Shown piece by piece: positions 11,518-51,519 of a DNA stretch of 64,000 bases (within the stretch, counting starts at the first letter, position 1; each line of letters opens with the position of its first letter). The notes under the pieces are model-generated. The model worked only from the letters and a program-made list of their open reading frames with translations, searched no databases and had not been told where the DNA came from. Source of the DNA: Escherichia phage VEc20; the sequence record MN022785.1; one strand, written 5' to 3'. The position numbers were made by a program, and so were the translations under genes.

Positions 11518-12120
11518 TTATAGATTAAATCCTTCAAAATCAAGAGTATAGATAGTATATGTTGAATACTTTTTGTACTCATATCTATCTGCAATTCTAA
11601 ATACACTTCCAGCTGGTATCATTACTTCTTGTTCATCTGAAACTAATTCCATATTACGATAACGATGACTATCCGGAAACTTAAAGTTTGGATTGTATTC
11701 TTTACAGCGTAGAGCTTTTATAGCATACTCCTGGAAATTGAATACCATAGGAGCTTTGAATTCAAAAATAACTTGTGTGTTATACTCTAAACCGGAAGCA
11801 AAATGTAGAGCTATATTTTTATCATATGAAGCTGATACTACTTTATCAAATATAATAGTATCAATTCCTTGATTTAACACCTGCTTAGTCTCAGCTGGAA
11901 CACCTCTCCAAAGAGGTTTATCGTTTGGAACCAAACGAGATTTGATTATTTCATTTAACCAAGAATGATCGTCTGGTTTATTAGTAATACAATGAATTAA
12001 AAGTTCAATTTCAGATAAATTAAACCCTTCAGAAAGTAATTCTTCACGAATAGAAGCACGCACCGATGCATCCATTGATTTTATTTTAAAATCTTTTAGT
12101 TGCATTACTGAGTATTTCAT
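11518..12120 (-). CDS. modA: ADP-ribosyltransferase ModA
   Basis: 200-aa ORF, size and position match; tandem with 207-aa ORF. Confidence 0.7.
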   Translation of the reverse strand: MKYSVMQLKDFKIKSMDASVRASIREELLSEGFNLSEIELLIHCITNKPDDHSWLNEIIKSRLVPNDKPLWRGVPAETKQVLNQGIDTIIFDKVVSASYDKNIALHFASGLEYNTQVIFEFKAPMVFNFQEYAIKALRCKEYNPNFKFPDSHRYRNMELVSDEQEVMIPAGSVFRIADRYEYKKYSTYTIYTLDFEGFNL

Positions 12121-12740
12121 TCAACTACCTCAATATCATAAACTTTAAATGTTCCAAATGAATCGTGTAATTTTTCTTTTGAAATAGAAGTTATTCTATA
12201 CTTTCCAATTGGAATCATCCATTCTTGTTCACGCACAATCATCATTAAGTTATCAGTACGCTCTGAATCTAGCCCATCAGTATCTTCATACGTGTACTTA
12301 AACTCAGTATTAGGAGAAGAAAGTATAATATCGCTGATATGGTCAGAATAATTAAAAGCTTTATCAGTTTTTAAGCGAAATATTATTTCAGTGAAATATT
12401 CAGCATAAGAAAAAGAACACGCTGTATGCAAACTAGTAGTAAATGAATCTACTCTGTTCGTTGAAAACACTTCTCCAACTTGTAAATCTTTAATGAGTTC
12501 TTTTGTCGATTTTGATATACCACGATATAGCTGATAAGGCGATTTAGTTAAATGCTTTTTAACGATTTTATTCAACTGCTGATGAAGAGCTTCATTCTTT
12601 TTGGCTTCCATACATTGCCAAAGAACTGACTGCTCAAAGTCAGTAAATTTTTCACAGACTTTTTTATACATATCATATTGAAAATCGACACTTTCAGCTT
12701 TTATAGATAACTGTTCAACATCTGCGAGATTAATAATCAT
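12117..12740 (-). CDS. modB: ADP-ribosyltransferase ModB
   Basis: 207-aa ORF, size and position match T4 modB. Confidence 0.7.
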   Translation of the reverse strand: MIINLADVEQLSIKAESVDFQYDMYKKVCEKFTDFEQSVLWQCMEAKKNEALHQQLNKIVKKHLTKSPYQLYRGISKSTKELIKDLQVGEVFSTNRVDSFTTSLHTACSFSYAEYFTEIIFRLKTDKAFNYSDHISDIILSSPNTEFKYTYEDTDGLDSERTDNLMMIVREQEWMIPIGKYRITSISKEKLHDSFGTFKVYDIEVVE

Positions 12741-12768
12741 GATAGCCTCCGTATACTTCAGAAGCTAT

Positions 12769-12796
12769 CATATCATCGTTAGAAAGGAAAGTAAAC
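12769..12796 (-). promoter_or_regulatory. T4 early-type promoter upstream of modB
   Basis: GTTTAC, 17 nt, TGATATGAT. Confidence 0.45.
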
Positions 12797-12807
12797 AACT
12801 TTTTGAA

Positions 12808-12990
12808 TTATTTTGCCCAGGGAGCCCAAGGCGGAGGGTCAAGATGGTATGAAGCTAGTTCTTCTAGAAGAGCATCTGGGGCTTCAATTCCATAATTCTG
12901 TAATACTATACGGTACTCTTTCTTATAATCACTAGAATCATTCTGGATATTCATAGAATGATTATCTTCTAACATCTCAAATAAATCCAT
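12808..12990 (-). CDS. hypothetical protein
   Basis: 60-aa ORF. Confidence 0.45.
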   Translation of the reverse strand: MDLFEMLEDNHSMNIQNDSSDYKKEYRIVLQNYGIEAPDALLEELASYHLDPPPWAPWAK

Positions 12991-40213: not shown

Positions 40214-40684
40214 TTAATCATGTTTCCACACCCCATCGGTATTTGACCAAAGCCGCTGATTATCTGATCCTCTCCACAGCTTTTTGGTCGGAAGATTTTT
40301 CTCATACTTCCCATCAATAATAACATCAACATATTTAAGCATTTCTAGTTGTTTAATATCTTCAAACTTATATCCTGTCCACAACCAAATGCTTTTATTT
40401 GGATAAAGATTTTTTACTGTTTGAACAATGCAATGAATAACATCTCGATTATCAGGATAGAGAGGGTCTCCTCCAGTTATAGTTAATCCTTCTATATAAT
40501 CATTATTCAAACATTCAATTAATTGTTCTAGTGTTTCACCAGTGAATGGAATACCATTTCTAGCATTCCATGTTGATTTATTATAACACCCTTCGCATTT
40601 ATGCAAACAACCTGTAACGAAAAGAACGACCCTGCAACCAGGGCCATTCACAAAATCGCAAGGATAAAATCTATCATAATTCAT
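40214..40684 (-). CDS. nrdG: anaerobic ribonucleotide reductase activating protein NrdG (radical SAM)
   Basis: 156-aa ORF; Cys cluster CLHKCEGC. Confidence 0.85.
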   Translation of the reverse strand: MNYDRFYPCDFVNGPGCRVVLFVTGCLHKCEGCYNKSTWNARNGIPFTGETLEQLIECLNNDYIEGLTITGGDPLYPDNRDVIHCIVQTVKNLYPNKSIWLWTGYKFEDIKQLEMLKYVDVIIDGKYEKNLPTKKLWRGSDNQRLWSNTDGVWKHD

Positions 40685-42498
40685 TGATGCTTAACCCTAT
40701 GCATGATTTCTTTATTTTTGCCGAGATTAAATCCGCGTTCGTTCGGATTTCCCAAATAACCACACGTTCTTCTTATTGTATTCATCTTTTTAGGATCAGT
40801 TTCTCCACAAATAGAACAAACAAATCCGTTTTCAGTAGGAGTCATTTCATGGGTACTTCCGCATGTAAAACATTTATCCACTGGCATATTAACACCAAAA
40901 TAATCTAAATGTTGTGCAGCATAATCCCATACGGCCTCAAGACCTTTCAAGTTATTTTTCATATCAGGAAGTTCAACATAAGAAATGTGACCACCTGTCG
41001 CAATGAAATGATATGGCGCTTCACGAGAAATCTTTTCAAACGGAGTAATATTTTCTTCTACTGAGACATGGAAACTGTTAGTGTACCAGCCTTTATCGGT
41101 AACATCTTTTACGCTTCCATATTTTTCTGTATCGAGTTTACAGAAGCGATAACAAAGGTTTTCAGCAGGAGTCGAATATAAACTAAAAGCAAATCCGGTT
41201 CTTTCAGTCCACTGTTTAAGATGAGCATTCATTTTAGTTAAAATTTCTCGTCCAATATCACGACCGACAAGAATATTCAATTCGTGAATACCAATGTATC
41301 CTAAAGACACTGAACTTCTACCGTTTTTAAATAACTCAATTATATCGTCATCAGGTTTAAGACGAACCCCAAATGCACCTTCTTGGTAAAGAATAGGAGC
41401 AACAGTAGCTTTAACTCCTTTTAAGGAACTAATTCTACACATCAAAGCTTCAAAACATAAATCCATTCGTTCATTGAACAATTCAACAAATTTCTGTTCA
41501 TTGAACTGTGTTCCAATATAAGAATCTAACGCGATGCGAGGAAGATTCAGTGTTACAACACCAAGATTATTACGTCCATCAAGAATTTCATTACCAGTCG
41601 AATCTTTCCATACGCCCAAGAAACTACGGCAACCCATTGGAGAAACAGGAATAGATGAGCCGGTGATAGCTTTATTGTTCTTAGCTGAAATAATATCAGG
41701 ATACATCCTTTTGCTTGCACACTCTAAAGCAAGCTGCTTAATATCATAGTTCGGATCGTCTTTATAAAGATTAACGCCTTCTTCAACGAACATAACAAGC
41801 TTAGGGAAAATAGGAGTTATCCCATCACGACCGAGACCTTTAATACGATTTTTCAGAATTGCTTTCTGAATCATTCGTTCAGTCCAGTCAGTTCCCGTAC
41901 CAAATGTAATTGTTACAAAAGGAGTCTGTCCGTTTGAACTAAAGAGAGTATTTACTTCATATTCATAAGCTTGGAATGCATCGTATACATCTTTTTCTGT
42001 TTTAGATTGAGCATAATTCAACGCATCAGCGATTTGCCATTTTTCTGCATCCTCAATATGTTTTGCATAGGTGCGTTTAACATAAGGAGAAAGTACTTTA
42101 TCGACATTAGCAAATGTAGTTCCGCCATATTGGTGAGAAGCAACCTGTGCAGTAATTTGTGCCATAATTGCAGTAGCAACACCGATTGATTTAGGAGTTT
42201 CAATCTGTGCATTACCAAGCTTAAATCCGTTTTCAAGCATTCCTTTTAAATCTACTAAACAACAATTAGTAAATGGAAGAGCAGGGGAATAATCAATATC
42301 ATGGAAATGAATAATTCCGCTTTCATGCGCTTTCATAATAAAAGACGGGACCATATTTTTGGCAATGTGTTTAGACACAATACCAGCCATAAGGTCCCGT
42401 TGAGTTGGAAAAACACGAGAATCTTTATTAGCATTCTCGTTTAAAAGGTCTTTATTAGTTTTATGAATCAATCCTTCAATTTCTTTTTCAATTGTCAT
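40681..42498 (-). CDS. nrdD: anaerobic ribonucleoside-triphosphate reductase NrdD, intron-less
   Basis: 605-aa continuous ORF; C-terminal zinc ribbon CFTCGS...CSICG and glycyl-radical region. Confidence 0.9.
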   Translation of the reverse strand: MTIEKEIEGLIHKTNKDLLNENANKDSRVFPTQRDLMAGIVSKHIAKNMVPSFIMKAHESGIIHFHDIDYSPALPFTNCCLVDLKGMLENGFKLGNAQIETPKSIGVATAIMAQITAQVASHQYGGTTFANVDKVLSPYVKRTYAKHIEDAEKWQIADALNYAQSKTEKDVYDAFQAYEYEVNTLFSSNGQTPFVTITFGTGTDWTERMIQKAILKNRIKGLGRDGITPIFPKLVMFVEEGVNLYKDDPNYDIKQLALECASKRMYPDIISAKNNKAITGSSIPVSPMGCRSFLGVWKDSTGNEILDGRNNLGVVTLNLPRIALDSYIGTQFNEQKFVELFNERMDLCFEALMCRISSLKGVKATVAPILYQEGAFGVRLKPDDDIIELFKNGRSSVSLGYIGIHELNILVGRDIGREILTKMNAHLKQWTERTGFAFSLYSTPAENLCYRFCKLDTEKYGSVKDVTDKGWYTNSFHVSVEENITPFEKISREAPYHFIATGGHISYVELPDMKNNLKGLEAVWDYAAQHLDYFGVNMPVDKCFTCGSTHEMTPTENGFVCSICGETDPKKMNTIRRTCGYLGNPNERGFNLGKNKEIMHRVKHQ

Positions 42499-43199: not shown

Positions 43200-43298
43200 T
43201 CAGAAAAAGAATTTTGAGTTTTTTCAAGTATTGTAAAACATTTGATGCAATCGCTTATATTGCCGAATCTTTTGGTCAGAAAAAGAAATTTGAGTTTC
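43200..43298. repeat. duplicated pin 3'-end segment: 23-bp B-repeat (43200-43222, 43276-43298) flanking A-repeat copy 2
   Basis: tcagaaaaagaattttgagtttt vs tcagaaaaagaaatttgagtttc. Confidence 0.65.
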
Positions 43299-43709
43299 AA
43301 GCCATTCAATGTACTCTGCGGCAGCTTGCATCAGGTTACCTTCATAGCCATCGTTATTTTCTTGTGCAGCTAATTTAGCTAATGCGTATGAAATACGTTC
43401 ACCTTGAAAATCGGCTTTAGGCTTCTGAACAACTTGATTAGTTCTCTCTACAACTTCCTCGATTTCACCATTTTCAACGGATTCAGTATTCCACAAACAC
43501 CAATACGTAATTGGCTTATCATAGATGTTAATAATCTTTCCGTCGGAAAGTTCAATTTCAACAATTCCAGTGTCAGGCTCTATATCATCTTCACATTCTT
43601 TTGCAAGTTCACGAACTTTAAAGACAGTACCTGCACTAAGTTCCGGCCAGTAATTACATAGCCCTGTATCAATACGATTAATTCTAAACCACTTATCTAC
43701 TGTAATCAT
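43224..43709 (-). CDS. pin: Pin, inhibitor of host Lon protease
   Basis: start taken as MITVDKWF (161 aa); ORF track gives TTG-start 167-aa version. Confidence 0.7.
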   Translation of the reverse strand: MITVDKWFRINRIDTGLCNYWPELSAGTVFKVRELAKECEDDIEPDTGIVEIELSDGKIINIYDKPITYWCLWNTESVENGEIEEVVERTNQVVQKPKADFQGERISYALAKLAAQENNDGYEGNLMQAAAEYIEWLETQISFSDQKIRQYKRLHQMFYNT

Positions 43710-43828
43710 GTCCCATCTCCATATCAATTAAGTCATTTATCGTTGGTTCATTATATACTGTTTCTTCATCAGTGTAAACCGGTTCTTCCGGCTCTGGCTC
43801 TACAGTTTCCCATCTAGCCGCCCACCAA

Positions 43829-44002
43829 GGTTTAACCCCGAAGCTTATTAAGTTCTTCATAATCAATCCAGGATTCTAATCCTGATGGCAAATCAGATTC
43901 AATTTCCCAAAGAAGTTCTTCAATTTTATGAAGACGATCTAGTTCTTCGGCTGGAATAGTAACCATTGACGGAGTTCTTGATACATTAATATCGTAAATC
44001 AT
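43829..44002 (-). CDS. hypothetical small protein (57 aa)
   Basis: hand-translated MIYDINVSRTPSMVTIPAEELDRLHKIEELLWEI... Confidence 0.3.
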
Positions 44003-44004
44003 AT

Positions 44005-44220
44005 TTACCCCAATTTAACCATACAATCGCCGTATTTCCACTTAGAAATAGACTTTTCACCGTTAGAATAATAAACTTCGAGTTTAGCACGATTATTTTT
44101 AATTTGAATAACCTTGGCTGTCATCAAAGTTCCATACCCATAATAAACTGCAACTTCATCACCTACATATACCGCGCTTCCGCGGTAATCATGAATATAG
44201 TCAGTTCCTTCGAGCATCAT
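44005..44220 (-). CDS. hypothetical protein
   Basis: 71-aa ORF. Confidence 0.5.
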   Translation of the reverse strand: MMLEGTDYIHDYRGSAVYVGDEVAVYYGYGTLMTAKVIQIKNNRAKLEVYYSNGEKSISKWKYGDCMVKLG

Positions 44221-44726: not shown

Positions 44727-45116
44727 TTAATCCAAAATATTATTAGGCATTGGTTGAACACTCACAAGTTCTTTAAAGAACTCAGTAGAGTCAGGCAATT
44801 TAACCATTTCCGGAGCATGCTTACTGAATTTATGTTTACATTGACGGCATTTATATTCAAGCTCTGGTTTACGCCAGTTAATCAACTGAACTTGTTCAGT
44901 ACCGCATTCAGGGCAATTAGGAACGTTTTTAGAAGCTCTTTCACGTCGTTCAACCATAGCCATAATAGCATCCCATGCTGGAGGTTTAAAATCTAAATCG
45001 TCGCAGCCGTGAATCTTTCCACGCATTTCCATATCATCTTCCTCACCAGCCATAATAATTTTAATTAGACTAGAATTACTTGAAGCTGCAATGTCTTCTA
45101 ATAAACGCTTTTTCAT
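44727..45116 (-). CDS. zinc-finger protein (CPECG...CRQCKH)
   Basis: 129-aa ORF. Confidence 0.5.
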
Positions 45117-46042
45117 TTCAATACCTCAATAGCATTACGTAAACCATTTGCTTTTGCATTAAGAGCTTTTAACAATTTGGTGTGTTCTGCAATTTGGGCT
45201 TCAACTTCAATCAAACGGGCATTGAGATATTCACGTTCTTCACTCAGATTATCAACCTTTTCTACTTTAGGCTCTTTTACAACTGTCTTATATGTATTAG
45301 GGTTCTTCAGTTTAATTAGAATGCGTGAACTGTATAACATTGAACCATTATCTTCGGTTTCGTCATACATTTCCACTACGTCCATAATTTTTAACATCAT
45401 GCGGAGTTTATAAGACAACGAACGAATAGTTTTGTTGTGCTTATTAATTTCTTTAGCTGTCATGGTGCCAAGATTACGTGAGTAATAATAAGGAACCTGG
45501 ATATTAATTAATACTGATGAACCACCTGGCTTGTGTGTTACTTCATCAGCAATAACCCAATCCTTAACATGAACTGTATTTGTACGGTCATCGCCCGCGG
45601 TAAATAGTTTACGAGCATGCTTAAAAAGCATATTCACTTGGTCATTGAATTGACAAGCGAATTTATCAGCAAATTTAGTTTCGGGAATGGTAGATAACCA
45701 ATCAGCCAAATGGGTCTTTTTAACATCGTTAACAATAGTAAATTCAACCAAATCGGTTATAGATGTCGCAGTTTTAATGAATCTCGGCTTCATAAAGTTT
45801 TTAATGTTATCGCGAGCTACAGTAGAAGATAACATACGAGAACGTTTAAACCATTCAAGTAAATTGCCTAACGAATGAGAATAAGCGTTCTGAGTATCTT
45901 TACAGATATGATTTTCCTGGCCAACATACTGAAGGAAATCACGAAGAATATTATTGATTACTGCTCTGTGTCCTATCTGATAATCACGATGTTTAGTAAT
46001 AAGACTGTCAAAATAATCAATATAATGTTTACGAGTTTTCAT
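45113..46042 (-). CDS. paralog-family protein with C-terminal coiled coil (member 1 of 4)
   Basis: 309 aa; shares LF-K--RKL--GDD-like core motif with following three ORFs. Confidence 0.55.
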   Translation of the reverse strand: MKTRKHYIDYFDSLITKHRDYQIGHRAVINNILRDFLQYVGQENHICKDTQNAYSHSLGNLLEWFKRSRMLSSTVARDNIKNFMKPRFIKTATSITDLVEFTIVNDVKKTHLADWLSTIPETKFADKFACQFNDQVNMLFKHARKLFTAGDDRTNTVHVKDWVIADEVTHKPGGSSVLINIQVPYYYSRNLGTMTAKEINKHNKTIRSLSYKLRMMLKIMDVVEMYDETEDNGSMLYSSRILIKLKNPNTYKTVVKEPKVEKVDNLSEEREYLNARLIEVEAQIAEHTKLLKALNAKANGLRNAIEVLK

Positions 46043-46096
46043 GTTCTTCTCACTTGGTTAATGGTTTATACTCCGAGCCATCCTTGGCTTTAAATT

Positions 46097-47098
46097 TTAC
46101 TTAATTAACTGTAAAGCTTGTTCAAGACGATCCAGGCGATTAACAGATTCTTCCCAAATCCTTTTAGCCTGCTCATATTCTTTCTGTGCTTTATTAGAAA
46201 TTTCTAGAACTTCTTTATAAGCTTTTTCTAATGCAATAACTTCTGGACGAATTTCTACCGGTTCAGGTGAATCATCAAGATTATCCATTAGTTCCTCAAG
46301 GGTAGTTTCTTCTTTAGGAGTATTCACAATTTCATCACATTTTTGTTGGTAAATTTCTTTATCAGTCGGTGAGTACGCACACTTTACTTCACGAAGACTA
46401 ACTACAATTTTATATCCTTCCCAACCGCATATATTCTTAAAAGGATAAGTATGAATATTTTCTACCGTTTCCATACAAAGTAATGCAGTCTCTAACTGAC
46501 GAGTTGTATCACTAGCAATTGAGAAAAATTTATTAATGTTCTTTTGATTAGCTTCTGGTGTAAAAAATTCATAATTCACAAAAATAGCTGCTTTATTTTT
46601 ATCAAGTTCATATTCTTTTATGATAATCATATCAGAAGCCAAAGGATGAATTTGACGATAATCGCCATAACATAATTTAGAAGCTGATTTTAGAATTTGC
46701 TTCTTGAAAAGTCTAAAATTACTAATCCAACGACGAGTAAAAATATTCTCAGGGTCTTCTTTATTATTAAGATGATAAGAATTAACATCACCGAACCAAC
46801 TGTATCCTACTACATCTTTGGTTCGTTTAATTTCTTTCCCAAAATTACTAAGAATATCTTGATTAACTAAATATGAAAGAAGACGAGACCCTTTAAAGGT
46901 TTCCTTAATATCATCTTTATCTACACGACTAGAAATTTTATGAACTTCATGAATAAATTTGCTGGAAGAAACAATACTTGCATCAGTATTGTTGAGCCAC
47001 TGATTGATAATAGAAAGAACACTATTCTGACTAGACATAGGTTTAACTTTATCATCAATAACGCTATTGAATGATTTGATATATTCGTTACGAGTCAT
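46097..47098 (-). CDS. paralog-family protein with C-terminal coiled coil (member 2 of 4)
   Basis: ORF track 46097..47149 trimmed to ATG 47098 with GAGGAG RBS; motif FRLFKKQILKSASKL. Confidence 0.55.
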   Translation of the reverse strand: MTRNEYIKSFNSVIDDKVKPMSSQNSVLSIINQWLNNTDASIVSSSKFIHEVHKISSRVDKDDIKETFKGSRLLSYLVNQDILSNFGKEIKRTKDVVGYSWFGDVNSYHLNNKEDPENIFTRRWISNFRLFKKQILKSASKLCYGDYRQIHPLASDMIIIKEYELDKNKAAIFVNYEFFTPEANQKNINKFFSIASDTTRQLETALLCMETVENIHTYPFKNICGWEGYKIVVSLREVKCAYSPTDKEIYQQKCDEIVNTPKEETTLEELMDNLDDSPEPVEIRPEVIALEKAYKEVLEISNKAQKEYEQAKRIWEESVNRLDRLEQALQLIK

Positions 47099-47128
47099 AT
47101 TAATCTCCTCAGTAGAAAGTAAGAACAT

Positions 47129-47156
47129 TATACCACATCCTTGTGGCAAAGTAAAC
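47129..47156 (-). promoter_or_regulatory. T4 early-type promoter, near-identical to rIIA.1 promoter at 2417..2448
   Basis: GTTTAC-tttgccacaaggatgtg-GTATAAT. Confidence 0.55.
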
Positions 47157-48175
47157 TAGTTCAGTGCATTTAGTGCATTGTTCAATTTAGAACGTTGCTT
47201 CGTGAGATTTTTGACTTTTTCTTGAGCTTTTTCTAGCATCTTTTCAGCTTCTAGCACTTCATTAGTTGCTTTAACGAGTTCATCATCTACTGCCTTGATA
47301 GACTTCTCAATCGCATCCGCGTGCCATTTTTCAACAGGTTTAAGACTCGGATTTTCAATAGGAAGAAAATTCACTTTATTGAATTTCCATGCATCTTTAT
47401 TACCTGAGCTATACATCCAAAATTTAGGATCGTTTGATGAGCAATTAGATAAATTTAAGTTATCTTGCACTTCCTGCTTTTTCTCTTGCGGGACTTCATC
47501 CTTTCTCAAAAAATCGTATTTAAATGAAACGATCATATCAAGTTCATACGTTGTTGTATGTTCCCAATTTCGCTCAAAATGAGGTAAAATCTTAGACTGA
47601 ACAGCGGCAACAACATCCATATACTTAAATGCTTCTGTCAACTGTGATTTAAGGCATTCACAAATTGAAAGAGAATTTTTTGTATTAGGTTTAAAGCTAA
47701 TTCGTGCAGTTCTATTATTTTCTTTTAATGGTCTTACTTCCATCTGAAGAGTATAACCATCAAATTTCAGGTTCTTTAAGTTAATGTCAGAACCTTTTAA
47801 TCGACTAGCCGTCGACAAAATTTGCTTTAATTGTTTACGGAATAGAGCAATAAATCTCCATTCAAGACGGTAATGATTTGGATTAAAAAATCCTGTTGAT
47901 AAATCAACCTTACTCTGACCAACGCCTTGAACAAATAGAGGATTTTTATAATCAATAGTTTTACAGAAATCGGTGAGCTGTTCGCGAGCAGTCATTTGCG
48001 TAATATATCCAGCTTTATCAAAATGTCGCAGCCATTCACTGCTATTCATATACTTAAAGTGAATGGAACTATTAACTCTATCAGGGTCTAAATTATTTTG
48101 GCACAAAAATGTCATAACATCACGAGTATAACTGGCATTACGAACCATATCTTCAATTTGAGAACGAGTTTTCAT
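47156..48175 (-). CDS. paralog-family protein with C-terminal coiled coil (member 3 of 4)
   Basis: 339 aa; motif FIALFRKQLKQILSTASRL. Confidence 0.55.
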   Translation of the reverse strand: MKTRSQIEDMVRNASYTRDVMTFLCQNNLDPDRVNSSIHFKYMNSSEWLRHFDKAGYITQMTAREQLTDFCKTIDYKNPLFVQGVGQSKVDLSTGFFNPNHYRLEWRFIALFRKQLKQILSTASRLKGSDINLKNLKFDGYTLQMEVRPLKENNRTARISFKPNTKNSLSICECLKSQLTEAFKYMDVVAAVQSKILPHFERNWEHTTTYELDMIVSFKYDFLRKDEVPQEKKQEVQDNLNLSNCSSNDPKFWMYSSGNKDAWKFNKVNFLPIENPSLKPVEKWHADAIEKSIKAVDDELVKATNEVLEAEKMLEKAQEKVKNLTKQRSKLNNALNALN

Positions 48176-48183
48176 GGTGTTCC

Positions 48184-49089
48184 TTAAGATTTAAGTAAAT
48201 CAACAATTTTAATTAACTTTTCACGCTCAGATTTAGCTTTACTACTCAATCCAGATAGTCTGAAAATTTCATCATCATATTGTTGAATAGAAATATTCAG
48301 CTCTTCAATCTGTTTATTAAAATAATCAATTTGTTCAGAATGTTTTTCGTTACTACGAACTGGTACAGGTTTTGTAGGCAATTTAGTTGAACTGGATTCA
48401 TCCGGGCGATAAATTAAAATACAATTTGAACCAATCGGGCATTTAGCACCAGACACATATTCTAGTGTTCCAGCTTCTTTTAAAACTTCAAAAGCTAAAC
48501 GGAGATGATGACCCATATTGACATAATCTGTAGAGTGAGCTCTGATATAATAATCATCTCCACGAGTACTAAATTTAAAGCATTTAAGGTCTTCTGTATT
48601 ATTAGTTTTAAAAATCATTTGTTTATCTAGACCTTTAGCTAATCGAGCACCTAATGCTAATAATCGTCGTTGATTTTCCCATAAATCCGCAATCATTTGA
48701 TCGAATGACAATTTCGGCATTAGTCGACCATAAAGGTCATATCCTTTATTATAATTGCGAAGAATTTCACTCGCGTTAATACGAGACAACGCTCCAATTT
48801 TATTAAGGGCTTTCATGATGCGATTAGATAAACTCATTCCAGACCCGTTTGTTCGCTGTAAATGTTTTTCTAATCCAAATCCAATATCAACTTTAAATTT
48901 ATCTAAAATTTTGGCATGAACATCTCTGTCAATAACATTCAAATCCAAAGTTGGGTTAAATCTATGAAAAAATTTATCTGGCTCTCCACGACGAAGTACA
49001 GTCCATTCATTCATCATTTTTTTATTAACTAAAGATTTAATTACTGCATTGACATTATTAATTACTACTGACATATTTTCCTCACTCAA
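48184..49089 (-). CDS. paralog-family protein with C-terminal coiled coil (member 4 of 4)
   Basis: 301 aa; motif RRLLALGARLAKGLDKQ. Confidence 0.5.
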   Translation of the reverse strand: MSEENMSVVINNVNAVIKSLVNKKMMNEWTVLRRGEPDKFFHRFNPTLDLNVIDRDVHAKILDKFKVDIGFGLEKHLQRTNGSGMSLSNRIMKALNKIGALSRINASEILRNYNKGYDLYGRLMPKLSFDQMIADLWENQRRLLALGARLAKGLDKQMIFKTNNTEDLKCFKFSTRGDDYYIRAHSTDYVNMGHHLRLAFEVLKEAGTLEYVSGAKCPIGSNCILIYRPDESSSTKLPTKPVPVRSNEKHSEQIDYFNKQIEELNISIQQYDDEIFRLSGLSSKAKSEREKLIKIVDLLKS

Positions 49090-49545: not shown

Positions 49546-50073
49546 TTATGCGAGTACCGTCTTTAACCGTTCTTCAAACTTCCGAAGAGTATTCTGGCGT
49601 TCAGCTCTTTGCTTTTTGTAAGTTTCAATACGCTCTGAAATGAGAGTGTATCGTTCATTTACTGATTCTTTCATAAAATCAGGAATTTCACGAGAAGCTT
49701 TAATCTCATCAAATTTATCAATAACAGCTTGCTCTTCAGCAATTAAGTTATCATACATCAAAATATCTTTCTTGATGAACTCAATATCTTCTTGAGTTAC
49801 ACGAGATAACTTAGATGCTTTATCCTTTTTGTAATGTTCATTAGTATCACGAGACCAGTGTAATGTACGATTTTTATTCGTATTCTTGTAAATTTCTACA
49901 ATACCAATCTCATCGATAATAACGATCCAATTCCAACGGGATTTGTAAATTTGTCCTCCATCAACCGTGATTTCACCTCCGATTGAGATGTCATTAAAGA
50001 ACTTGCTTTGCGCTTCAGATTTAAATTTACCATCGTTGTAATTTACCAGGTTGAAAATATCTTTAGCGTTCAT
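49546..50073 (-). CDS. hypothetical protein
   Basis: ORF track 49546..50133 trimmed to MNAKDIF at 50073 with GGAGG RBS. Confidence 0.5.
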   Translation of the reverse strand: MNAKDIFNLVNYNDGKFKSEAQSKFFNDISIGGEITVDGGQIYKSRWNWIVIIDEIGIVEIYKNTNKNRTLHWSRDTNEHYKKDKASKLSRVTQEDIEFIKKDILMYDNLIAEEQAVIDKFDEIKASREIPDFMKESVNERYTLISERIETYKKQRAERQNTLRKFEERLKTVLA

Positions 50074-50101: not shown

Positions 50102-50131
50102 ATAGTACCACAGAGGAACAGTCTTGTAAAC
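50102..50131 (-). promoter_or_regulatory. T4 early-type promoter (GTTTAC, 18 nt, TGGTACTAT)
   Basis: about 45-bp module near-identical to 24870-24915 and 52012-52058. Confidence 0.55.
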
Positions 50132-50538: not shown

Positions 50539-51519
50539 TTATTTCAGAAGAGTAACCTCAGCGATTTCTTCCCAACCGTTTTTGTCGGTCATAATAAAGT
50601 CAGCAAGATAAAGAGCAGTACGCAGTGAAACATTACGTAAACGGTTAACATTGACTTTCATCCATGATAATGCTTTATAAGTTTCTTCATCAGAAAGACC
50701 GCGCTTTTGCATCATGTCGGTTGAAAGAATAACATCTTCAACCCTGACCATAATTTCTTCATTAGTGTGAACACCCAAATCTAAATAAACTGAGCGGGAC
50801 ACTAATGCTTGTAAATGTGGAGCAAGTTTAGTACCACGGTCTAATTCGCGGTCAATGTCAACGTTTGTGATAAAAACAATCGTTCCTTTAAATTCAAACT
50901 CACGCTCAATGCCTTTTTCTTCTAAGTAAGAAGATGCGGTGCTCCAGCAGACTTTGCGGGTCTCTCCGGTGTCCAGAGCAGCTTTCAGAAGATTAAGAAT
51001 GTCCATATCAGAGAAAACATCCACATCATCAATCAAAAGGACAGAATTCTCTTCACGATTATTCCAAAGCTGTTCATAAAGACCGATACCGGAGATTTTA
51101 CCGTTAATGCTTTTATATTCAATGTATCCATTATCATTTGCTTTATTCAAAGCTTTATCTAAAGAATACGTTTTACCAATACCCGCCGCACCAGAGATAA
51201 TTAATGAACGAATGTTTCCGTTAATAATACCATTCGTCATCATTCCCATAACATTAAATCTTTTATTAATGCGGGTTTTCATATCTTCATATGATTCTTT
51301 AACTTCTTCAACTTTTACACCATCATATGAAATGTCTGATTTGTAAACCCAAACACCGCGACGCTTACCGTCAATTTCAACAAAAACTTTACCATCTCCT
51401 TGTGCATCCACCGGAGCATTATCTGGGAACCATTCACCTAAGAGCTCAAAAGTTCCAGAGATTTCTTTACCAAAGTAGATACCCTTATTGATAGTTACAG
51501 TTTTCATTTTATTCTCCAA
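50539..51519 (-). CDS. P-loop AAA-type ATPase of unknown function
   Basis: 326-aa ORF; Walker A GAAGIGKT, Walker B VLLIDDVD. Confidence 0.65.
   Translation of the reverse strand: MENKMKTVTINKGIYFGKEISGTFELLGEWFPDNAPVDAQGDGKVFVEIDGKRRGVWVYKSDISYDGVKVEEVKESYEDMKTRINKRFNVMGMMTNGIINGNIRSLIISGAAGIGKTYSLDKALNKANDNGYIEYKSINGKISGIGLYEQLWNNREENSVLLIDDVDVFSDMDILNLLKAALDTGETRKVCWSTASSYLEEKGIEREFEFKGTIVFITNVDIDRELDRGTKLAPHLQALVSRSVYLDLGVHTNEEIMVRVEDVILSTDMMQKRGLSDEETYKALSWMKVNVNRLRNVSLRTALYLADFIMTDKNGWEEIAEVTLLK

Follow-up and report, generated by a model that had tools for sequence, protein, structure and literature searches.

The window, 64,000 nucleotides of Escherichia phage VEc20 (MN022785.1), comes from the genome of a Tequatrovirus; 656 phage records match, the best of them at 98.7%. 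On its minus strand, between positions 45113 and 49089, lie four consecutive ORFs, the orthologues of nrdC.3, nrdC.4, nrdC.5 and nrdC.6 of phage T4, within a locus whose order is that of the T4 annotation (nrdC, nrdC.1, nrdC.2, nrdC.3 to nrdC.6, nrdC.7 and nrdC.8). The genes themselves are already known. A sequence-only reading of this DNA had proposed four consecutive ORFs of 301 to 350 amino acids; the consecutive arrangement was confirmed, and the starts and lengths of two of them, nrdC.4 and nrdC.6, had to be corrected.

The nrdC.3 orthologue (45113..46042, minus strand; 309 aa; phrog_1435, E 2.5e-116), placed also by synteny with T4, is about 60-62% identical to the T4 protein and represents a window-type allele distinct from the T4 type. 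The nrdC.4 orthologue (46097..47098, minus strand; phrog_1435, E 1.3e-166) encodes a protein of 333 aa, 92% identical to that of T4. Two features place its start at the ATG at 47098 and not at the TTG at 47149, namely the conserved N-terminus of the family, MTRNEYI, and a ribosome-binding site, GAGGAG; the 350-aa ORF is too long at its N-terminus. The Pfam model PF26897 matches every nrdC.4 homologue. The nrdC.5 orthologue (47156..48175, minus strand; 339 aa; 91% identity to T4 NrdC.5) matches DUF7235 (PF23882) with 416.2 bits and E 1.2e-124, the gathering threshold of this model being 30 bits, and the nrdC.3, nrdC.4 and nrdC.6 proteins, scanned with the same model, do not match it. The nrdC.6 orthologue (48184..49074, minus strand; 296 aa; 94% identity to T4) starts at the ATG at 49074, which is preceded by a ribosome-binding site, and is assigned by phrog_2257 (E 3.8e-151) and by PF26899 on its homologues. 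The N-terminal MKTR that had been remarked on in two of the proteins is present in nrdC.3 and nrdC.5, and with the MTR of nrdC.4 the shared start becomes M(K)TR in three.

Two elements in the region resemble the T4 early-promoter consensus GTTTAC-N14-GTGGTAxxAT, in agreement with the earlier placement of the array in an early region. The element upstream of nrdC.4, GTTTAC-N14-GTGGTATAAT (47127..47155, minus strand), scored 10/12 with TG in the scan, and the annotation of phage ASO78A lists it as a T4 early promoter; the element upstream of nrdC.8, GTTTAC-N14-GTGGTACTAT (50102..50131, minus strand), lies where ASO78A also has an early promoter. As the intergenic gaps are short (8-11 nt), the genes from nrdC.8 to nrdC.5 may be co-transcribed, and the promoter upstream of nrdC.8 probably drives nrdC.8, nrdC.7, nrdC.6 and nrdC.5. 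In T4 the genes nrdC.3 to nrdC.6 are dispensable (PMC9825161; HIDEN-SEQ supplement), and insertions in nrdC.3, nrdC.4 and nrdC.6 had no significant effect in the one HIDEN-SEQ comparison covered.

Pfam and PHROGs place the four proteins in three separate families of unknown function: nrdC.5 in PF23882/PHROG 2351, nrdC.3 and nrdC.4 in PF26897/PHROG 1435 and nrdC.6 in PF26899/PHROG 2257. The evidence given below unites these families and defines a two-module architecture, neither of which turned up in a search of the literature and of databases. Many GenBank records carry a thioredoxin label, taken over from the nrdC.x gene names. We rejected this label, since scans against Pfam, NCBIfam and PHROGs gave no thioredoxin or glutaredoxin family and a CxxC is not visible in the four translations. 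A tyrosine-recombinase SAM-like domain was likewise rejected; it was matched by nrdC.3 only, one of 32 family members, at 18.4 bits in NCBIfam, where the cutoff is 279, and at 13.7 in Pfam, where it is 22.3 (E 0.001 in NCBIfam and 0.078 in Pfam). Nor was there a case for decoys or mimics of defence proteins, as PADLOC returned tail-type or short matches only (BrxC and BrxF, E 0.004-0.03).

All four genes descend from one gene by ancient tandem duplication, their paralogy having been proposed in the sequence-only reading, and they belong to one superfamily, connected by profile similarity either directly or through an intermediate. The proteins of nrdC.3 and nrdC.4 are 25.7% identical over 226 aa by BLASTP, with an E of 6e-12 between the families (hhalign); nrdC.4 and nrdC.5 match with E 2.6e-4 over 232 columns, and with E 1.3e-3 when the tails are cut off and the heads alone are compared. 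Paralogue heads are only about 12-25% identical to one another. In the alignment of nrdC.3, nrdC.4 and nrdC.5 the sole invariant residues are T3, R4 and F70, and a catalytic-looking constellation is therefore absent.

The relationship of nrdC.6 is less direct. Compared with the other three, its N-domain gives E values of 0.17-0.43 (hhalign), the same as controls, so that of the pairwise comparisons proposed earlier those of nrdC.3 with nrdC.4 and of nrdC.4 with nrdC.5 were significant and that of nrdC.6 was at noise level; a direct comparison with a deeper alignment gave P 0.004. Together with its separate family in both Pfam and PHROGs, and with the absence of nrdC.6-type proteins at E<=0.001 when the nrdC.3/.4/.5 head profile was searched against 1.84 billion representatives, this could mean that nrdC.6 is no true paralogue and has converged on the same architecture of a mixed alpha/beta head and a helical tail. 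We consider such convergence very improbable. A family of single-copy syntenic homologues in Kanagawavirus matches the nrdC.6 family (E 1.5e-6, 161 columns, 90% probability; hhalign) in a stretch that includes the central motif, the beta/alpha region and the tail, in this order, and it matches the nrdC.5/.4/.3 alignment with an equal E (1.5e-6, 243 columns, 90% probability). The protein gp085 of IME523 is hit by both the nrdC.5 (9e-8) and the nrdC.6 (3e-6) HMM. With nrdC.6 included, the motif N-x-R-x-(L/I)-L-x-L-G-x-R-L-x-x-G...FKT keeps its register, and nrdC.6 adjoins the other members within the array. The head fold was compared from AF2 models of nrdC.5 (pLDDT 72) and nrdC.6 (pLDDT 78.5) only, that is from predicted and not solved structures; in these the secondary-structure elements follow in the same order, the motif has the same position, and Foldseek matches of the two models have six Straboviridae proteins in common (E 1e-4 to 1e-8, near full length). 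Linkage of nrdC.6 to the superfamily appears to be transitive, by the bridge family and by the structure prediction called for in the sequence-only reading rather than by direct profile comparison.

All four proteins are predicted to follow one plan: a head of about 225-250 residues, a flexible linker and, at the C-terminus, a helix of 45-56 residues with heptad periodicity. Within the head a helical part is followed by a conserved helix-helix motif and then by a hairpin-helix-hairpin; relatives of this fold were looked for among solved structures and none were found. The core motif noticed earlier stood up well, being in register in all four proteins of the window and in three distant homologues. 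In the seven-protein alignment it corresponds to the central motif helix of nrdC.3 (residues 120-153, PETKFADKFACQFNDQVNMLFKHARKLFTAGDDR; 45584..45685, minus strand), and by alignment with nrdC.5 and nrdC.3 to residues 116-149 of nrdC.4 (46652..46753, minus strand). In nrdC.5 it covers residues 100-133 (47777..47878, minus strand), where alignment is joined by AF2 helices at 104-114 and 116-127, and in nrdC.6 residues 120-153 (...WENQRRLLALGARLAKGLDKQ; 48616..48717, minus strand), placed by alignments and HMM comparisons.

The C-terminal segments had been described as heptad-like, and when the periodicity of the last 45-56 residues was tested against shuffles of the same segment it was significant in all four. 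The helices comprise residues 265-309 of nrdC.3 (45116..45250, minus strand; p=0.0115), 285-333 of nrdC.4 (46100..46246, minus strand; p=0.001) and 283-339 of nrdC.5 (47159..47329, minus strand; p<0.0005), the last modelled by AF2 as a single helix at 283-338 behind a disordered linker of residues 227-282 (47330-47497, minus strand; pLDDT <50). In nrdC.6 residues 243-296 (48187..48348, minus strand; p<0.0005) are modelled as two helices, 243-272 and 278-295, which in the monomer fold back as a helical hairpin. The tails are thus predicted to be heptad-periodic helices, with coiled-coil pairing putative; Pfam coiled-coil families gave weak matches in 8-12 of the 32 family members scanned. Within each orthologue set the tail is better conserved than the head: 78-83% against 60% for the N-domain between nrdC.3 and the T4-type allele, and, between genera, 57-60% against 41-49% for nrdC.4 and 57-70% against 41-44% for nrdC.6. 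The tail also supplies most of the cross-family HMM score, and its end carries a signature common to the paralogues, (Q/E)R-x-(K/R)L-x-x-A-x-x-x-L-K.

The family is confined to T4-like (Straboviridae-type) phages, with 14 matches among 1.84 billion representatives, and its copy number varies from one to four per phage, with natural deletions and chimeras: LH2 is without nrdC.4, F2 has two members, and Dhakavirus/Gaprivervirus-type loci are without nrdC.3. The heads diverge faster than the genes next to the array. Identity between genera is 25-53% for the four genes and 67-80% for the flanking nrdC.8 and nrdC.10; the dN/dS of the four is 0.12-0.27, against 0.04-0.10 for the same two neighbours; values below 1 give no sign of gene-wide positive selection.

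For one of the four a function is on record, and the statement that function is unknown is for nrdC.5 outdated. T4 nrdC.5 neutralises Dsr1, a SIR2-TPR NADase sirtuin defence: a deletion mutant again forms plaques on Dsr1 cells when these carry nrdC.5 on a plasmid (Srikant et al. 2022, eLife, PMC9391042). That publication gives the phenotype only and does not report a mechanism, a structure or a link to nrdC.3, nrdC.4 and nrdC.6. The gene at 47156-48175 is the orthologue by synteny, identity and DUF7235, the other three being its paralogues; as the window NrdC.5 differs from that of T4 at 9% of residues, the anti-Dsr1 activity of the window allele is an extrapolation. The anti-defence role suggested for the family is thus demonstrated for T4 nrdC.5 and inferred for the other three, for which no phenotype is reported in the literature. 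Adjacent genes also have known targets, 49.2 being anti-OLD and nrdC.1 anti-Septu; they share with nrdC.3-nrdC.6 the same island (gene 49 to nrdC.11), early expression, dispensability and restriction to T4-like phages, but encode small unrelated proteins with no domain or tail in common with them.

We favour, with a probability of roughly 0.6, the reading that nrdC.3 to nrdC.6, transcribed early and dispensable on laboratory hosts, encode modular, non-enzymatic inhibitors of host immunity in which a variable head is joined to a constant tail. Such proteins would block host immune proteins stoichiometrically and without enzymatic activity; the fast-diverging head would give target specificity, and the conserved tail a constant function, most likely self-association, association of paralogues (avidity) or docking. 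NrdC.5 would bind Dsr1, possibly its capsid-sensing TPR domain, ahead of the late capsid protein, and nrdC.3, nrdC.4 and nrdC.6 would act likewise on other targets. The best functional analogy for this proposed action is DSAD1 of phage SPbeta, an inhibitor of the sirtuin defence DSR2; this SIR2-NADase, too, has a C-terminal sensor, by which a structural protein of the phage is recognised.

It is possible, if doubtful, that nrdC.5 is the sole immune antagonist and that the other three have drifted to unrelated roles in host takeover or regulation, such as the binding of host or phage core proteins or of DNA, or are near-neutral passengers. The lack of a reported phenotype, the non-essentiality of all members and their frequent loss (LH2, F2, Dhakavirus/Gaprivervirus-type loci) would fit, as would the weak likeness of NrdC.3 residues 30-88 to the XerD-type N-terminal SAM-like DNA-binding domain, although this appears in a single one of the 32 members. 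All four genes are under purifying selection and therefore not neutral, and presence/absence polymorphism combined with rapid divergence is characteristic of accessory host-range genes; the flanking genes, moreover, are anti-defence. We think it unlikely that the four proteins block a single class of targets, redundantly or as variants, each being tuned to a different Dsr1 allele or to other defence proteins with the capsid-sensing TPR domain of Dsr1/Avs7 and not to unrelated systems. The Dsr1 sensor domain, common to Avs7 and to proteins whose effectors include nucleases and kinases, shows great diversity (9,097 proteins; PMC12803255), and all four paralogues keep a common tail and a predicted common fold; heads only some 12-25% identical, however, lie further apart than one would expect if they were adjusted to the alleles of a single sensor.

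The inhibitors favoured here have a parallel of design within T4 itself. The internal proteins IPI, IPII and IPIII are clustered, fast-diversifying accessory proteins which combine a short capsid-targeting sequence with variable anti-defence bodies, and ipIII has a host-range role. The likeness lies in the constant handle and variable head. In the internal proteins, however, the constant module is an N-terminal peptide of 10 residues that serves packaging into the phage head, whereas nrdC.3-nrdC.6 are early cytoplasmic proteins with a C-terminal helix of about 50 residues, and there is no sequence relationship. A bolder extension, which we regard as distinctly unlikely, is a modular adaptor system in which the C-terminal helix is a common handle and interchangeable heads capture different immune sensors for sequestration or disposal. 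The handle could zip the paralogues into mixed oligomers or dock all of them onto one hub, which could be the paralogues themselves, some factor of the phage or machinery of the host, for instance a protease. If true, it would be a phage counterpart of the eukaryotic-virus adaptors, by which one constant machine of the cell is directed to changing restriction factors.

Although T4 has been studied more than any other phage, three of its four early proteins of about 300 aa considered here have no assigned function, and for the fourth there is a phenotype but no mechanism. The analysis corrects a widespread thioredoxin mis-annotation and offers a head fold without a solved relative. With a two-module design common to all four, what was a single observation on Dsr1 becomes a hypothesis on a whole family that can be tested; it predicts specificity in the head and a common function in the tail. 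Candidates for counter-defence are nrdC.3, nrdC.4 and nrdC.6, and with them their homologues, one to four in number, in other T4-like phages used for therapy.

The phage genome in the window belongs to Tequatrovirus (T4-like), and the 3,977-bp interval holding the four genes (45113-49089, minus strand) is matched by 656 phage records, the best being Escherichia phage D5505 at 98.7%, with at least 80% of the interval covered by 462 of them. Comparison with the annotated T4 genome identifies the four minus-strand ORFs as the orthologues of nrdC.3, nrdC.4, nrdC.5 and nrdC.6, flanked by nrdC.2 and nrdC.7 and located downstream of nrdD, gene 49, pin and nrdC. As these are long-known T4 ORFs, one of them with a published phenotype, the array cannot be called a new system. 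In PHROGs the four genes fall into three families, all with the function label unknown: phrog_1435 (nrdC.3 and nrdC.4), phrog_2351 (nrdC.5) and phrog_2257 (nrdC.6). In Pfam nrdC.5 is DUF7235 (416 bits), and labels precomputed on homologues assign nrdC.3 and nrdC.4 to PF26897 and nrdC.6 to PF26899. The databases and papers searched contained no merging of the three database families into one superfamily, no description of a variable head combined with a constant tail, and none of the single copy in distant T4-like phages as the ancestral state.

Two of the ORFs called in the sequence-only reading were too long. The nrdC.4 protein has 333 and not 350 amino acids, starting at ATG 47098, because the family always opens with MTRNEYI and a GAGGAG ribosome-binding site lies upstream of this codon; nrdC.6 starts at ATG 49074 and encodes 296 amino acids. 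Two MKTR starts were noted earlier; once the starts are corrected, three of the four proteins open with M(K)TR. In the T4 reference (NC_000866) nrdC.6 is annotated with 275 amino acids and a divergent or short C-terminus (12067-12894), while it has 296 in other Tequatroviruses and in the T4 annotation of the HIDEN-SEQ supplement (891 nt); the difference may be due to a frameshift or to annotation. Many GenBank phage records label homologues of nrdC.3-nrdC.6 as thioredoxin. No thioredoxin-fold match or CxxC motif is present in the homologues so labelled, and the label has spread from the locus names nrdC.x.

The paralogy proposed from sequence inspection was examined by pairwise and profile alignment, which is significant for two pairs and reaches nrdC.6 only indirectly. 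NrdC.3 and NrdC.4 share 25.7% identity over 226 amino acids by BLASTP (hhalign E 6e-12; 2.5e-12 with heads only, the head being the N-terminal 225-250 or so residues), and NrdC.4 and NrdC.5 align over 232 columns (hhalign E 2.6e-4, 1.3e-3 after tail removal). The core motif reported before, F-[KR]KQ-L---AS[KR]L-G-D, is in register across all four proteins and three distant homologues. No DNA-level repeats were found between the paralogues, so that the duplications are old rather than recent. The sole DNA-level similarity among them is a 17/19 identity between the translation-initiation regions of nrdC.3 (46031-46049) and nrdC.5 (48164-48182), GAAxAxCATGAAAACTCGT.

Direct BLASTP and hhalign comparison of NrdC.6 with the other three gave no score above controls; its head alone yields hhalign E 0.17-0.43, the level of unrelated controls, and with a deeper alignment a topologically congruent stretch reaches P 0.004. 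The link needed a bridge family. Distant T4-like phages, including Marfa (gp080), Enterobacter phage IME523 (gp085) and the Kanagawavirus relatives, carry a single homologue in the same position, directly upstream of nrdC.2. The Kanagawavirus profile, built from five sequences, matches the nrdC.6 family with E 1.5e-6 over 161 columns, a stretch that takes in the central motif, the beta/alpha part and the tail, and the nrdC.5/.4/.3 alignment with E 1.5e-6 over 243 columns. IME523 gp085 is matched by the HMMs of nrdC.5 (9e-8) and nrdC.6 (3e-6), and Marfa gp080 by those of nrdC.5 (1.5e-11) and nrdC.4 (1.5e-6). AlphaFold2 models of NrdC.5 and NrdC.6 (mean pLDDT 72 and 78.5) agree in how their elements are ordered: the N-terminal part is helical, the two consecutive motif helices come next, and a beta-hairpin, a helix and another hairpin lead to a low-confidence linker and the long C-terminal helix. 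In Foldseek both models hit the same six uncharacterised Straboviridae proteins (304-346 aa; Pectobacterium phage PM2, Acinetobacter phages fHyAci03 and Acj61, Klebsiella phage Mineola, Yersinia phage fHe-Yen9-01 and Serratia phage CBH8) with E 1e-4 to 1e-8 and alignments across roughly the full length, and neither found a target outside such phages at E 1e-3. Bridge family, element order in the models and common Foldseek targets are three independent lines tying nrdC.6 to the rest. On the predicted models, one shared fold for NrdC.5 and NrdC.6 is well supported but not proven, and we put the probability that all four genes are paralogues at about 0.9.

The heptad pattern seen at the C-termini holds, the last 45-56 residues exceeding same-segment shuffles with p 0.0115, 0.001, <0.0005 and <0.0005 for NrdC.3,.4,.5 and.6; these values come from a segment-level test, as a whole-protein heptad scan under-calls NrdC.3 and NrdC.4. 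In each orthologue set the head is less conserved than this tail, with tail against head identities of 57-60% and 41-49% for NrdC.4, 57-70% and 41-44% for NrdC.6, 78-83% and 60% between the NrdC.3 alleles, and 57% and 32% for a divergent NrdC.6-type protein of phage F2. Across families, the HMM score to distant homologues derives mostly from the linker-tail junction (P-x-P-V-E...H) and a terminal signature, (Q/E)R-x-(K/R)L-x-x-A-x-x-x-L-K. The tail is modelled as a single 56-residue helix in NrdC.5 and as a helix-turn-helix in NrdC.6; these are monomer predictions, and oligomerisation through the tail is an even bet. Heptad periodicity is likewise seen in the C-terminal helix of the 175-aa nrdC.8 orthologue (49546-50073, minus strand; p=0.001). 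Its inclusion as a fifth, shorter or truncated member is unsupported, tail periodicity alone being shared and hhalign giving E 0.06-0.8. Among the weak Foldseek matches to the two models is a 175-aa protein of Klebsiella phage KPV15, at E 8e-3 and 0.22.

The number of copies is one in Marfa and Kanagawavirus, two in phage F2, three in phage LH2 (without nrdC.4) and in loci of the Dhakavirus/Gaprivervirus type (without nrdC.3), and four in T4 and the window; the single copy of the distant phages appears to be the ancestral state. An exhaustive HMM search of 1.84 billion representative proteins with the nrdC.3/.4/.5 head profile matched 14 clusters, the named ones all T4-like phages or phage-sized contigs, and no bacterial homologue hinting at function. 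Identity from genus to genus is 25-53% for the four genes, compared with 67-80% for the flanking nrdC.8 and nrdC.10. Within Tequatrovirus the dN/dS of the heads is 0.12-0.27 compared to 0.04 and 0.10 for nrdC.8 and nrdC.10, which indicates purifying but relaxed selection on the heads. Two nrdC.3 alleles of about 60% identity exist (comparison loci L001-L003 against L004, L005, L009 and L018), and the window (45113-46042) carries the non-T4 type, with 18% identity to the T4 allele in the linker and about 80% in the tail. F2/JS09-like phages share this type (84-88% nucleotide identity), but in them divergence puts the remaining genes of the array beyond the reach of megablast, a sequence pattern that suggests allele exchange through recombination. 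In a 167-kb contig (P0056) nrdC.4 is lost and nrdC.5 and nrdC.3 form an in-frame chimera with its junction at FN(K/D)xVN microhomology, and nrdC.4 is split in locus L009 (6971-8003).

Matches to the T4 early-promoter consensus GTTTAC-N14-GTGGTAxxAT occur at two places, upstream of nrdC.8 (50131-50102) and between nrdC.5 and nrdC.4 (47155-47127), and both elements carry early-promoter annotation in phage ASO78A. The 54 nt that separate nrdC.4 from nrdC.3 contain a GC-rich stem-loop (GAGCCATCCTTGGCTT, 46073-46090, plus strand). The nrdC.1-nrdC.6 block can be deleted in T4 (PMC9825161), and transposon mapping scores all four genes as non-essential (HIDEN-SEQ supplement). In the neighbourhood, nrdD (40681-42498, minus strand) is one unbroken 605-aa ORF, while T4 nrdD has the I-TevII intron and adjoining mobC. 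With a minimum of 60 aa, the stretch between pin and nrdC (43224-44220) contains just one more ORF, of 71 aa; T4 carries 49.1, the anti-OLD gene 49.2 and 49.3 there. The nrdC.2 orthologue (44727-45116, minus strand; 129 aa, 98 to 129 among relatives) includes a CxxC...CxxC segment that resembles a zinc ribbon (sub-threshold match to Zn_ribbon_8, E 6.6e-6). The nrdC.10 orthologue (50539-51519, minus strand), about 79% conserved between genera, is a Walker-A P-loop NTPase with weak sub-threshold matches to STAND/AAA families (nSTAND3 E 1.2e-4, AAA_16 2e-4).

Anti-defence activity is established for the T4 orthologue of one member, nrdC.5, against the sirtuin defence Dsr1, which kept an evolved, deletion-bearing T4 clone from infecting ECOR17 (Srikant et al., eLife 2022, PMC9391042). 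A literature search turned up no subsequent study of nrdC.5, anti-Dsr1 or DUF7235, and for nrdC.3, nrdC.4 and nrdC.6 nothing beyond listings; nor was NrdC.5 found in the supplements searched of the EVADES anti-defence compendium. A PDB sequence search gave no match, and NCBIfam, PADLOC and Pfam scans no meaningful domain; an XerD-like N-terminal match in NrdC.3 was rejected as not reproducible across the family. Invariant positions shared by the nrdC.3, nrdC.4 and nrdC.5 families are limited to T3, R4 and F70, and with so few such residues the proteins may be non-enzymatic binders, in which the variable head would choose the target and the conserved tail would serve self-association or a shared docking function. 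The TPR sensor of Dsr1, which Avs7 has as well, is reported to be triggered by the phage major capsid protein (2026 preprint, PMC12803255). By analogy with DSAD1 and DSR2, NrdC.5 could occupy Dsr1 ahead of the appearance of the late capsid protein. Neighbouring genes counter other systems, gp49.2 being directed against OLD (PMC13096335) and nrdC.1 against Septu (bioRxiv 2025.11.20.689424). The four genes share a two-module architecture, have early promoters, can be dispensed with in T4 and show the dynamics of accessory genes; an anti-defence role for the whole family is slightly favoured, in which the other three paralogues would be aimed at other immune targets.
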